A stretch of DNA of 63,685 bases, filler included, from Platydemus manokwari (taxonomy: Eukaryota), in the NCBI GenBank assembly GCA_037951405.1. It is 5 parts of 5 records of this genome, joined end to end, with 100 filler letters (N's around TTAATTAATTAA, not from the genome) between each part and the next. Parts side by side here need not be neighbours in the genome. Positions count along the whole stretch, not along the records: positions 38,441 to 53,904 come from JBBMOY011285872.1; 4 more parts are not named here. The stretch is one strand, 5' to 3'. Below, piece by piece: positions 50,360-53,904 of this stretch. Position 1 is the first letter of the stretch, and the number at the start of each line of letters is the position of its first letter. The position numbers and the translations under genes are program-made. The notes under the pieces are model-generated. The model was not told the origin of the DNA. It did not search any database and saw only the letters and a list, made by a program, of their open reading frames with translations.

Positions 50360-52344
50360 CTATTCATTATCATGGAATATAAAATATTAAATGAAACAAA
50401 TAGAATATTTTTATTCTGAATTAAATTTAAGTGGAATAACAGAAGAAGAACATCAAAGAGCTCAAGATATTTGGAATAAAATCAATTGTAAAACATTATC
50501 GAATTATTCAATCTTATATTTAAAAAACGATGTAAATATCTGGGCTGATGCAATAGAATCTTTCAGAACGAATTACATAAATAAAGGAAATTTAGATCCA
50601 GCTCATTATTTTTCATCCCATCTTTAACATGGGAATCAGATTTAAAAGAAATTGATCTTGATCAGACAATGTATGAAATGATGGAACAAGGAATTAGAGA
50701 AGAAATATCTTCAATAATGGTAAGAAGATATGTTAAAGCAAATAATAAATCTACTATTGAGGATATAGATTGTTACCATTATCCAGAAGAACATGAATTT
50801 AGAAATGTAATAGAAGAATTAAACAAATGTGAAAAGGACACCAATGGAATGCCAAATGAATCTTTGCATTGCAATGCCAACTTTATTGGATCTTTTAATT
50901 TAAATAAATATTTTATTATGAACTATCTTTGTTATATAAATGCCAATAGCGTATATTGATGGGCAGTGAGTGAAGCTTCACCAAATAAAAATTTTGAACG
51001 GGTGGAACAAGAAAAGTCGGATAAAATAAACAAAGACTTAGACACATTTGTTTCTAATCTAAAAAGAATTCCTCCCAAATCAAGTAGAAAAACTTATCTT
51101 AGAAGTTGATTTTGAATGTACAAGTAATAAACAAACAAAATATTTTCCTTTAGATTCTAAAATTTTTTGTTGTTGTTTAAAGATAAACAAAAAGAACAAA
51201 TAAAAGAGAAAAATTTCTTTTATCTGAATTGTTAATTTGTAATCAAATAGATAAAACCAATTATCTTTTTTACTATAGAAATCTACAATTTTATTCTAAA
51301 ATGTTCATGAAGATGAAAAGGATAAATCGAATATTATCATGCAGCCAAAAATCATGGATAAAAGAATATATTCGCTCAAATACAAATCTAATAACACCTG
51401 GAACAAGTAATTTTGAAAAGGATATCTGGAAACTAATGAATAAAGCATTTTTTTGAAAAACAATAAAGAATATAAGGAAACGTAAAAATATGAAAAAATT
51501 TCTAATCCAATTATAGCAAGAAAACCAAACACCGAACCAACTTATAAAAGATATACAAAATTTAATGATGAATTATTTGCAATACATTATCATAAAGTTA
51601 AATTAAATAAATCAATATATTTAGGATTTTGTATTTTAAAATTAAGTAAATTATTAATGTATTAATTTTATTATAATATTTTAAAACCCAAATAGAATGA
51701 AAATACTGGAATATCGTAAATTGATACGGATGCTTATATATTATACGTTAAAACCGAAGATATCTATGAAGATAATAATAATGATGAAGAATTAAAAAAT
51801 GAATTTGATTTCTCATTATAATTGTTAGCCGCTACTATTTTAAAAACCACACATTGCAAATGTATTTTAATACATGTATTTAAACAAATAAATCTAATTT
51901 TATATAAATATGATTTCAAATTAAATCCGAATTAAATTAGAATTAAAATTCAATATTTTTGAAATATTTCACAATAATAAAGATCATTATCTATACAGTA
52001 CAATAAATAAGAAAATACCAGGAAAATTTAAAGACTAATTAAGTGGAATTATTTTAGTAAATTGCATTGCAATTAGACCCGCATGGTATTCTTATAATGT
52101 ATGTAACGTAAAACCCAAGTCAAAAAACAAAGGAATTAAAAAAGTAGTTGTTGCTAAAAATATGAATATAGATTTTTTTAAGGAATGTTTATTTAATAAT
52201 AAAAATAATTATCAAGTTGTTATGATAATCGGTTCTAATAAACATGATATAGAATTATCAAAAACTAATAAATTACATAATTTTGACAAACAGAGATTCA
52301 TTTGTGAGGATGGTGTAAACACCTTTCCATTCTTCTTCACTTAA
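50360..52344 (+). pseudogene. Protein-primed family-B DNA polymerase of a Polinton/Maverick (adintovirus-like) element; 5'-truncated, with many stops and frameshifts
   Basis: Ordered motifs: FYSELN..I, LYLKNDVNIWADAIESFR, LDPAHYF, EQGIREEIS (GIRGGIS), YVKANNK, YINANSVY*WAVS (YLDANxLYGWAMS), YRNLQFY, SWIKEYI..NT, FEKDIWKLMNKAF (KLxxNxxFGK), KSIYLGFCILKLSKLLMY, IDTDAY (YxDTDS), NKKIPGKFKD, RPAWYSY, KGIKK, DKQRFICEDGVNTFP. Confidence 0.9.
51823..51973. mobile_element. 151-bp TG...CA insertion (short solo LTR-like) inside polB
   Basis: Starts TGTTAG and ends TTCACA. It is flanked by an exact 5-bp duplication ATAAT (51818-51822 and 51974-51978) and interrupts the FDFS..KDHYLYS motif. Confidence 0.7.
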
Positions 52345-52400
52345 ACTTGAGTAGCAGTCATTACCAATTTTATTTACTAATTTAACTAACTCATCTTTAA

Positions 52401-52856
52401 TTATTTGAAATACAAATATATTCCAATCAATTTATTATTTTTTAATAAATTTTCTTTAGCTTCTAAAGGTCTAAAATTTATCCAATTATTACATTGGTAT
52501 CTATCTTCCTCACTATTATATTCCAATGGGGGCCCAGGAATTACATGATCCAGATGCCAATATGATTCCTGATTATCCCATGACATTCCATCTTTAAATT
52601 GTAATTCTATCCATCTTTTGAATAATTAAAAATCAAATACCAAGATATCCTTCTGATGTTGTGGATTTCATACATTTTACAGAATTTCTTATCTTATCAA
52701 ATATATTTTTTCAAAATCTTTGTTGTGACTTGCTTGATATTTTTGATTTTGGTATTCAACCTGAGTTCTATGAATGCATATTTTACATTGATTTATTTTT
52801 GAATAAAATTAATTAATATTTTCATTACATAATCAATTTGAACATTCTCGATACAT
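52401..52856 (-). pseudogene. Free-standing HNH endonuclease of the viral 'MxWxNxG.WHxDHxxP' type, with an N-terminal Zn ribbon
   Basis: Reads MYRECSN*LC...QCKIC...YLG...KRWIELQFKDGMSWDNQESYWHLDHVIP...NWINFRPLEAKENLLKNNK. The DH...N...N spacing is HNH-like. Stops and a frameshift are present. Confidence 0.8.
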
Positions 52857-53004
52857 TTTTTATAATTAAATTTTATTTATTTATTTTATTTAACTTTCTA
52901 ATATATTGATTTTTAGCTTCTTGTTGTATCTTTTTTGGTTCTTAATTTCTTTTACATTTTTAATCCTTAATATTTCTTTACGTAAATCTTTCTACGTAAA
53001 TATT

Positions 53005-53160
53005 TATCATTTGAAAGCATGTTGGAATGTGAGAAATATTAGTCTTTTAGAAGCAAAAGAAAATATTAAAAAATATAACAAGATCAACTTACAATTGCAT
53101 ATTGCACAAATAAAAAAAGCCGATAATTTTGAAAACAAATTAACAATACAACACCTTTAA
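53005..53160 (+). pseudogene. C-terminal remnant of a second HNH endonuclease (putative intron-encoded homing endonuclease)
   Basis: LKACWNVRNISLLEAKENIKKYNK aligns with QCNNWINFRPLEAKENLLKNNK of the neighbouring HNH. Its stop codon (53158-53160) overlaps the start of the group I core. Confidence 0.65.
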
Positions 53161-53362
53161 ATTGCGGGGAATTAGTAAAATATTTCTAGTAAAAAATGAT
53201 GGGGAATATATGGACAATTGCAGCAAGCTTCCTAGATTCGTTATGATAAGATTGTGGAAACTATTCAGAGGTTAAAAGTTGGTGGGCATGAAGAGTTTAT
53301 TCACCTCTAATGATTGCTTAAGATATATTCCAAACACTAATATTGAAAGAAATTAGAATTTG
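53150..53362 (+). ncRNA. Group I self-splicing intron catalytic core (IC1-like), degenerate, 5' part missing
   Basis: P: AAATTGCGGGGAA (53159-53171). Q: GACAATTGCAGCAAG (53213-53227). R: TTCAGAGGTTAAA (53264-53276). S: TTAAGATATATTCC (53318-53331). Pairings seen: P3 CACC/GGTG, P4 TGCGG/TTGCA, P6a TTCC/GGAA, P8 GGGC/GCTT and AGAG/CTCT, P9 CTAAT..GAAA..ATTAG, P9.0 AAA/TTT, terminal G at 53362. Confidence 0.8.
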
Positions 53363-53650
53363 TCAAGAACAAATCTTCAGGAACATTAAAAAATTATGAT
53401 GAAACTGTTAATAATAATGAAACTATTCCAATTCAAAATGAAAATCATCAGCATATAAATAGAGTAAATGCAATATCAACGCAACATGATGTTGATTATA
53501 TTTTAAAGATTTACAAGACAGACATGTTGCTGATGTTAAAATGATACATCATATAGATAATATTCCTGATCCAACTTTTAGAGTAAAATTAAAAAGATTT
53601 TTAATTAAAAGTATTATGAAAGGGGAAATTTTCTTTGAACAGAGATTTTC
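53363..53650 (+). pseudogene. Parvovirus-VP1-type phospholipase A2 domain (PLA2X of Polintons/adintoviruses), 3' exon
   Basis: Across two frameshifts it reads (S)(R)TNLQE.LKNYDE...INRVNAISTQHDVDY...DLQDRHVADVKMIHHIDNIPDPTFRVKLKRFLIKSIMKGEIFF. This matches the PGT.L..R / N..D..A..HDxxY / R..AD..M PLA2 pattern. Confidence 0.7.
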
Positions 53651-53904
53651 AAAGATAAAAGAAGGAAGTTCTTGACTATCAAAGATATCTAAACAAAGTT
53701 GACATGTATCACGCTTAGCAAAAGATTTACCTATTAAGAAAGTATTCAAAAGCAATGTACCAGCTGATTGCTCAGTCAATTCTGATGAAGACGAAAATGA
53801 AAATGAAATTAATTATACAAAATAACACAAAGCTGGAGTGTGGATTTAGACACCTGACGTCGGTAGAAATTCCCATCTGCGATCCAAGGAATCCAAATCC
53901 CAAT

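Follow-up and report, generated by a model that had tools for sequence, protein, structure and literature searches.

A giant-virus-type group I intron core beside the PLA2-like 3' exon of a decayed Maverick/Polinton-like remnant in Platydemus manokwari

Animal Mavericks (Polintons) and adintoviruses encode a protein-primed DNA polymerase (pPolB), a parvovirus-type phospholipase A2 (PLA2) and an rve integrase, and their degraded germline copies are common; no group I intron is mentioned in the available portions of the two accounts (PMC8502044, PMC5803895). The polymerase of Spodoptera Mavericks contains an endonuclease VII domain (excerpts of PMC5803895), and the PLA2 of animal Mavericks is a separate gene, termed PLA2X when it has a C-terminal pX part (Starrett et al., PMC8502044, in part). 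Group I introns with HNH endonuclease genes occur in giant viruses, such as Bodo saltans virus (PMC5871332, as far as accessible) and the viral contigs of GVMAG and IMG/VR (L057-L099), where conserved motifs of capsid, RNA polymerase and VLTF3-like genes (names assigned by reading) of large protist viruses have been invaded. Integrated Polinton-like viruses whose protein-coding sequence is interrupted by a group I intron have been described from Rhodomonas, Paulinella and Desmodesmus, all protist hosts; the interrupted gene encodes about 50 amino acids and lies upstream of the capsid gene, and in the text available no homing endonuclease is assigned (PMC12220804). In the literature covered, such introns were found only in these protist elements, and no account of an animal Maverick with a group I intron, or of a PLA2-integrase fusion, was found; subscription journals and supplements were thinly covered, and an earlier description is possible.

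The window analysed here is a stretch of 63,685 nucleotides, filler included, from the Platydemus manokwari assembly. It contains a module that is genuine but dead and non-functional, with the gene order pPolB back half (+), broken HNH gene (-), probable second HNH tail (+), group I intron core (+) and PLA2 3' part (+) (Table 1). The first-pass annotation had placed this module at 50360-53830, and its left end is now set about 190 nucleotides further left, at about 50170. The evidence supports a decayed, genome-integrated Maverick/Polinton-like remnant, which is in itself ordinary. The main finding is the group I core, which had been listed only in passing.

Table 1. Features of the element and its surroundings (positions in the window)
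Feature	Position	Strand	Evidence or remark
Host internal spliceosomal exon, 131 nt	47936..48066	-	AG/GT ends and a single open frame
High-copy repeat zone, left edge of element	49305..50225	.	summed contig depth >7000 vs 10-60 in adjoining host bins (depth is not copy number)
Maverick-type protein-primed DNA polymerase, C-terminal half, broken	50169..52344	+	120/120 relatives match; pPolB of L100 and L101 align
TG...CA insertion, 151 bp, solo-LTR-like or MITE-like host repeat	51823..51973	.	flanked by a 5-bp direct repeat
Free-standing HNH endonuclease gene, broken	52401..52990	-	tblastn with giant-virus intron HNH ORFs; tail-to-tail with pPolB
Probable second HNH ORF, C-terminal tail	52998..53157	+	22-aa match; directly 5' of intron core
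Group I intron core, P3-P9	53151..53362	+	model R1, 86.1 bits; RF00028 at 53117-53355; 74% over 124 nt to L012
Parvovirus-VP1-type PLA2 domain, 3' exon, broken by frame changes	53363..53660	+	matches P0003, P0004 and P0011
Linker with RLAKDL	53661..53760	+	leads into rve integrase in P0003

The core was scored with a covariance model (R1) built from 20 giant-virus introns only, without the window sequence. The match spans 53201-53364 and scores 86.1 bits (E 9e-17), against 11.8 bits for the next best place in the window, a background of 12-16 bits and 136.7 bits for L012, an unrelated metagenome contig that begins inside its intron; the training set was chosen by a motif that the window also has, raising the P7/P8 score, and the structure was drawn from the same sequences. 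Pairing in the R1 family is maintained in 95.8% of 594 cells, and 20 of its 30 pairs have changed on both sides, with none of 500 shuffles reaching as high. Rfam RF00028 also accepts members of the family (12 hits in 18 loci) and aligns over its full length to the window core at 15.5 bits, under the cut-off of 50, while an Rfam scan of the 5 kb from 49000 to 54000 returns nothing. Folding of the core as a single strand is no better than that of shuffles (z +1.8), which tells nothing about an RNA that is both pseudoknotted and decayed. The decay is visible in a P5 region shorter than that of the relatives, in several mismatched pairs including one in P7, and in the missing P1 and 5' end. The closest relatives found are in giant-virus contigs, with which the window shares the core and the P6/P8 layout, identity reaching 65% across the modelled core. 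A probable terminal G at 53362 is followed by an in-register 3' exon, as in L012, and the intron is predicted to have been self-splicing. In the intron tree the window and L012 are not joined, and the window has no supported placement, so that the tree does not support a single origin of the two PLA2 introns. Similar P/S-like words at 15416-15814 of the window and in L001, L033 and L038 were considered as further introns and rejected, as R1 gives them no score.

Two HNH remnants lie 5' of the core. The free-standing gene had been recognised by the first-pass annotation. Its catalytic part (52404-52625) is still an open frame and shows 32-46% identity to HNH ORFs borne by giant-virus introns (E 1e-8 to 1e-12); the upstream extent of the gene was judged by eye from the six-frame translation, and the window HNH used as a query against viral sequences found no relative. 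The second, on the strand of the intron, had been annotated together with the group I core. The core stands by its score, and the HNH assignment depends on one 22-aa match to the tail of the free-standing gene in the same window, which is marginal (24.6 bits, against at most 23.5 among 100 shuffles).

The exon that follows the intron belongs to a PLA2-like gene, as had been noted; 53440-53753 matches P0003 with 80% identity over the best part, and relatives carry PF08398. Its first codon directly follows that of the conserved Gly in the calcium-binding loop, and the intron of L012, of the same kind, ends at the same Gly/Pro codon boundary. The split of the gene, as annotated, is deduced from the surviving 3' exon and the intron end in register with it; the 5' exon and the 5' end of the intron are lost from the window. 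The loop is uninterrupted in 38 of 56 PLA2 loci and in the close relative P0004, and an intron is present in one of 58 PLA2 loci, so that intron-plus (window, L012) and intron-minus alleles of one site are seen across genomes. The earlier label PLA2X is not retained, since it needs a C-terminal pX (according to the portion of Starrett et al. available, PMC8502044) and the closest relative continues into an integrase. The suggested fusion to an integrase holds for relatives: P0003 has the order PLA2, RLAKDL and start of rve, L012 encodes integrase and PLA2 in one ORF, 36 of 150 relatives combine both domains in a single protein, and the integrase is fused to or directly downstream of PLA2 at 33 of 56 loci. 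In the window, no rve core is detectable between RLAKDL and 53905. As judged from these sequences, the host gene of the intron was likely a PLA2-integrase fusion, unlike the separate PLA2 gene of described animal Mavericks. In an AlphaFold model of another relative (P0013, pLDDT 80) the N-domain is helical and is accompanied by an integrase fold, and the listed Foldseek matches of the model are all integrases, which is uninformative for the PLA2 part. A viral scan with P0001 found no relative, and prokaryote genome scans found no locus.

It is improbable, in our estimation, that the intron is real but a passive passenger, with the HNH tail a fragment of some free-standing HNH gene joined to it by deletion and any movement effected in trans by the HNH gene on the opposite strand or by a restriction-enzyme-like cutter of GGNCC. 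This explanation draws on the presence of an HNH gene outside the intron, on endonuclease-less offspring introns known in Bodo saltans virus (PMC5871332, in part), and on a deletion junction at 52998, left of which other contigs of run X1 continue in unlike sequence and which conceals the true 5' context. The tail, however, lies on the strand of the intron and abuts P3/P4 in the layout of the viral introns L058 and L065, where the same HNH family is found just 5' of the core, an X1 contig (53049-53334) joins tail and core, and both are covered by many diverged contigs. The Gly-Pro codon pair split by the insertion does form a GGNCC word, but GGNCC is not depleted (274 seen vs 244.5 expected in the 56 PLA2 loci, 2 vs 1.6 in the window element) and no GGNCC nuclease is seen in the window.

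The polymerase, also recognised by the first-pass annotation, is preserved in pieces at 50169-50618, 50609-50998, 51096-51152, 51223-51495, 51498-51815 and 51979-52320 with several in-frame stops, and lacks the N-terminal ~45% of the protein. Each of the 120 full-length relatives aligns to 50142-52320, broken into 5-6 pieces over three frames, and has no other match in the window; the remnant also matches multi-copy proteins on long assembly contigs. The claimed erosion is evident in stops and frame changes, whereas the claimed G/C-to-A/T bias is only modest: among 34 single-step changes at conserved codons, G/C>A/T transitions number 10 and reverse ones 7, where about 10% and 17% would be expected. 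Most relatives carry an endonuclease VII domain in PolB, as do the Spodoptera Mavericks. PF03175 is recorded for only 4 of the 120 listed relatives and is absent from P0156, P0157 and P0165, which points away from an Alpha adintovirus, going by the wording of Starrett et al. (PMC8502044, in part); a motif search of part of the supplement of that paper (4.0 M characters) gave no match. Neither plasmids nor phages yielded a match to the closest relative (P0165), and the PDB yielded no polymerase match to it. The LTR-like insertion reported earlier in this gene is confirmed by its TG...CA ends and identical flanking 5 bp. It is the bin of highest depth, with many loose ends, in run X1.

The complete Mavericks L100 and L101 have the same type of pPolB, with PLA2 followed by integrase. 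The packaging ATPase, protease, and major and minor capsid genes of L001, L100 and L101 have no tblastn match in the window, as expected of a fragment, and no terminal inverted repeats or 6-bp target duplication were found in it, both ends of the element being truncated or at a gap. Pfam detects none of the viral domains in whole frames of the window (stops read as X) or in single fragments, and they were therefore located through relatives. The absence of termini, a contig depth that differs strongly among the parts, and the strand arrangement, in which pPolB lies upstream of PLA2 on the same strand but on the opposite strand in L001, L004, L100 and L101, would fit two or three unrelated insertions side by side, for instance a pPolB-HNH piece and an intron-PLA2 piece. 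This too appears unlikely, as every part is a Maverick gene found together with the others in complete elements, the parts are packed here without host DNA between them, and an X1 contig (52639-53027) bridges parts of the element; separate insertions would leave the intron finding unaltered.

The chromosome that bears the element is likely that of an animal. Its scaffold carries animal-type host genes (ZU5, MARVEL, DPOA2, C2H2 and PDZ), and the spliceosomal exon on the same ungapped stretch (44611-53904) is borne out. This exon probably belongs, as had been stated, to the PDZ gene, although the assignment is made across a gap of 185 N's (44426-44610) to the PDZ-coding exons further left, which have a weak Pfam match (E 0.005). 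Identical contigs of run X1, which may itself be the source of the assembly, tile the locus with 0-1 differences, but no single record spans from the host exon to the element. Of the earlier proposal of germline integration rather than a virus contig, the integration into a genome is supported by the complete Mavericks, the multi-copy relatives and the lack of plasmid or phage matches, with a junction to the host exon that is tiled and unspanned. The X1 data also hold many diverged relatives of a 511-nt intron stretch (241 contigs, 185 of them <95% alike), some of which could derive from other organisms. That the element came from a protist, symbiont or free virus and was mis-assembled to the animal scaffold at repeats is very unlikely: although the unitigs break at host-side repeats (47884-48525 and 49544-50009) with none covering the whole stretch, the nearest intron relatives are in giant-virus contigs and the published Polinton-like virus introns are all of protists (PMC12220804, in part), the depth is an even 8-13 on both sides, GC is 0.23-0.27 in the element vs 0.25 in the flank, the element is a pseudogene containing a repeat also present, in weaker form, in host DNA (38152-38228, and 49995-50046 within the repeat zone, the latter 81% alike over 52 nt), and a contig (50009-50432) crosses the left end of the polymerase homology.

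The locus is thus best read, with good though not full confidence, as a broken Maverick/Polinton, likely of the animal germline, whose PLA2-like gene held a giant-virus-type group I intron, predicted to be self-splicing and spread by its own HNH endonuclease. In the intact ancestor, splicing by the usual two-step reaction initiated by guanosine would have removed the intron from the viral mRNA and restored PLA2 or PLA2-integrase. The HNH ORF in the 5' part of the intron would have cut intron-free PLA2 alleles of other Maverick copies or co-infecting elements, and repair of the cut would have introduced a copy of the intron (homing); a nucleus with many Maverick copies could have supplied both donors and targets. 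This copy would later have lost the front half of the polymerase, the integrase core and the region between the two HNH genes, with the 5' exon, the 5' end of the intron and probably the capsid/ATPase block, and would have taken up the host repeat; it is now inert. More tentatively, and on balance doubtful, a large Maverick family in an animal nucleus may contain this giant-virus-derived, HNH-encoding intron in a form that still splices from mRNA and homes among germline proviruses. If so, splicing would gate the element's own integrase, given a PLA2-integrase fusion as the host gene.

To our knowledge, group I introns of this kind are hardly known from animal nuclei, and one that interrupts a protein gene of an element in an animal chromosome would depart from this. 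Such an intron suggests that Mavericks act as vehicles between giant viruses and animal nuclei, and with it ribozyme activity on an animal nuclear mRNA and homing among dispersed copies become testable.

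The PLA2 gene of the decayed Maverick fragment is preceded, at its remaining 3' exon, by the core of a group I intron, which Rfam missed in a 5-kb scan and scored at 15.5 bits on 471 nt. Among 56 PLA2 loci, the metagenome contig L012 is 74% alike over 124 nt of this core and carries it directly ahead of a PLA2-integrase ORF. A word common to the two led to 23 viral loci, mostly giant-virus contigs, and 12 RF00028 matches above the cut-off were obtained in the 18 of these that were scanned. In an alignment of 20 viral cores, made without the window and L012 and used to name a 30-pair structure, 95.8% of 594 cells are paired and 20 pairs show changes on both sides, while 0 of 500 shuffles match this structure and slid controls pair at 30–45%; these figures lean favourable, because the set was chosen by a motif and the structure was drawn from the same set. 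A covariance model built from giant-virus introns (R1) gives 86.1 bits for the window (next best in the window, 11.8) and 136.7 bits for L012 (next among the 56 loci, 16.2), and finds no intron in the near-complete Mavericks L100 and L101. Many introns of the same family stand in tandem in giant-virus contigs (L057-L099), within genes for capsid, RNA polymerase and VLTF3-like proteins. Several of these introns exceed 130 bits with R1 while falling below the Rfam cut-off, and RF00028 therefore under-calls the family.

Features of the window (empty cells, no strand given)
Feature	Position	Strand
Host PDZ gene exons	42183-42353, 43933-44168, ~44221-44425, 47936-48066	-
52-nt intron, host PDZ gene	near 44169-44220	
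Ungapped stretch with element and exon 47936-48066	44611-53904	
pPolB alignment	50142-52320	+
LTR-like insertion in pPolB	51823-51973	
Weak look-alikes of the insertion	38152, 49995	
HNH gene	52404-52625	-
HNH tail	52998-53157	+
Intron 3' end (G)	53362	
PLA2 3' exon	53363-53753	
Run X1 contig matches	45367-47883, 48525-49544, 50009-50432, 50670-51408, 52639-53027, 53049-53334, 53306-53614	
Gypsy-like LTR retrotransposon piece	54005-56471	-
Broken env-like ORF	54347-55867	
Gag-like ORF	9146-9634	+
Direct repeat pair (86%)	15862-15933 / 59334-59405	
Inverted repeat pair (75%)	35212-35364 / 59678-59830	
ORFs near the repeats	15084-15493, 59725-60198	

The intron stops directly ahead of the Pro codon of the PLA2 Ca-binding loop in the window and in L012 alike. 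By a strict pattern this loop is uninterrupted in 38 of the 56 loci; L012 is among the other 18. The word GGNCC is not avoided in the 56 loci, where it occurs 274 times against 244.5 expected. In a tree of 47 cores, the window has no supported placement and does not group with L012. Because the 5' exon and P1 are lost, the P5 region is shorter than in relatives and several pairs are mismatched, the window copy is unlikely to splice. In L012 (1-175), P7 is changed relative to giant-virus members yet still paired, a hint that the ribozyme fold is under selection at the PLA2 site. Group I introns splice themselves out, and they spread where the endonuclease they encode cuts alleles without the intron. 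The ancestral copy is predicted to have excised itself from the PLA2 loop, and would have spread among Maverick copies at this loop through endonuclease cleavage of intron-free alleles. For giant-virus group I introns, splicing has been confirmed by RT-PCR (PMC5871332). The HNH gene named on the minus strand in the first-pass annotation is borne out by similarity to HNH ORFs that neighbour group I cores on contigs of giant viruses (E 1e-8 to 1e-12). On the plus strand, 22 residues match the tail of this HNH family at 24.6 bits, a score reached by 0 of 100 shuffles with a thin margin (best shuffle, 23.5 bits). Left of 52998, contigs of the sequencing run X1 continue in unlike sequence, marking a deletion.

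The PLA2 exon is similar to the proteins P0003, P0004 and P0011, and PF08398 is present in its relatives. In P0003, PLA2 is followed by RLAKDL and then by the beginning of an rve integrase, and queries for PLA2 and for integrase both match in 36 of 150 relatives. Within the 56 loci, the integrase is fused in one ORF in 3, lies directly downstream without sharing an ORF in 30 and is not seen in 21 (7 with less than 500 nt of room); 2 have no PLA2 match. The gene had been labelled PLA2X, which is defined by a C-terminal pX domain (Starrett et al., PMC8502044); since P0003 and other relatives join PLA2 to integrase, it would be better read as PLA2-integrase. The fused integrase proposed to follow PLA2 thus holds for relatives, while in the window no integrase core is detectable, nor any capsid, ATPase, protease or element terminus. 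PLA2-rve fusions are common among relatives (L002, L012, L029; P0013, P0014, P0017, P0054, P0066), one protein having an N-terminal DUF5679 and a C-terminal chromodomain; a literature search found no paper on this fusion.

A pPolB fragment search found two relatives, and the longer one as query gave 4035 proteins. All 120 of those listed, including Mytilus and Ladona proteins, align at one place in the window, so that the proposed pPolB stands, its start lying ~190 nt further left than annotated. PF03175, the PolB type linked to Alpha adintoviruses, is recorded for 4 of the 120, and the element may be of either Alpha or Beta class. The closest relative (P0165) has no match among plasmids and phages. 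Only the back half of the protein remains, split into five to six pieces and carrying in-frame stops, and at 159 codons conserved among relatives the remnant agrees with them in 112. It is also similar to the polymerases of L100 and L101, two elements with genes for capsid, penton, ATPase, PLA2 and integrase (names are our own reading, with Pfam support from like genes of the locus L001). The claimed G/C-to-A/T erosion is reduced to a modest bias: 34 single-step changes include 10 such transitions and 7 reverse ones, against ~10% and 17% expected. The LTR-like insertion is confirmed: pPolB is broken by a 151-bp TG...CA sequence flanked by a 5-bp direct repeat. Intein and LAGLIDADG-type domains (PF14890, PF14528) on record for the pPolB relatives P0200, P0202 and P0208 are a further kind of selfish insert within this Maverick family.

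The window (GC 27%, five gaps) contains spliced animal-type genes, from which an animal host is inferred: ZU5, MARVEL, DNA polymerase alpha B, a C2H2 finger gene and weakly matching PDZ exons. The element shares its ungapped stretch with a 131-nt internal exon, probably of the PDZ gene, with AG and GT ends; a 185-N gap separates this stretch from the PDZ-coding exons. The W-R-x-R-R-R motif of the 131-nt exon is reminiscent of LMO7/smallish, without confirmation by Pfam. As this exon requires an upstream partner and none was found, the element may sit within an intron of the PDZ gene. The stretch is present in one run, X1, which may be the source of the assembly; its contigs differ from the window at 0–1 positions, at depth 8–13, and are interrupted at repeats. 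Germline integration, as was claimed, is favoured by the even depth, by a GC content matching the flank, by the decay of the element and by the host-type repeat nested in it, although none of the 8 X1 contigs listed (of ~10,800 pieces) joins the host exon to the element. A 511-nt intron stretch matches 241 X1 contigs, 185 of them less than 95% alike, which shows many diverged relatives in this run, the contig count not being a copy number. Past the gap, the gypsy-like piece encodes an integrase core and C-terminus (weak Pfam rve_3 and Integrase_p58_C), then the env-like ORF with a hydrophobic tail. The Gag-like ORF, with two CCHC zinc knuckles, is a retroelement remnant. The ORFs near the dispersed repeats show no Pfam match and no similarity to Maverick genes.

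Degraded Maverick copies are a familiar feature of animal germlines (PMC8502044). Among Polinton-like viruses, those of three protists are reported to have group I introns (PMC12220804, section 16). According to a review (PMC10964413), nuclear group I introns are confined to rRNA genes. Our literature searches found no report of group I introns in animal Mavericks; comparison also covered parts of Jeong et al. (10.1101/2023.08.22.554363), PMC11296320, PMC3671162, PMC5803895 and PMC11161782, and a word search of PMC11131425 gave no match. The first-pass observation is largely right, with these corrections. This copy is a fossil, its function a prediction; the class to which it belongs is unexpected and can readily be tested. 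The window links the intron to those of giant viruses, gives it an HNH-type partner and a PLA2-integrase host gene, and adds a second natural case of an intron at the same codon boundary.
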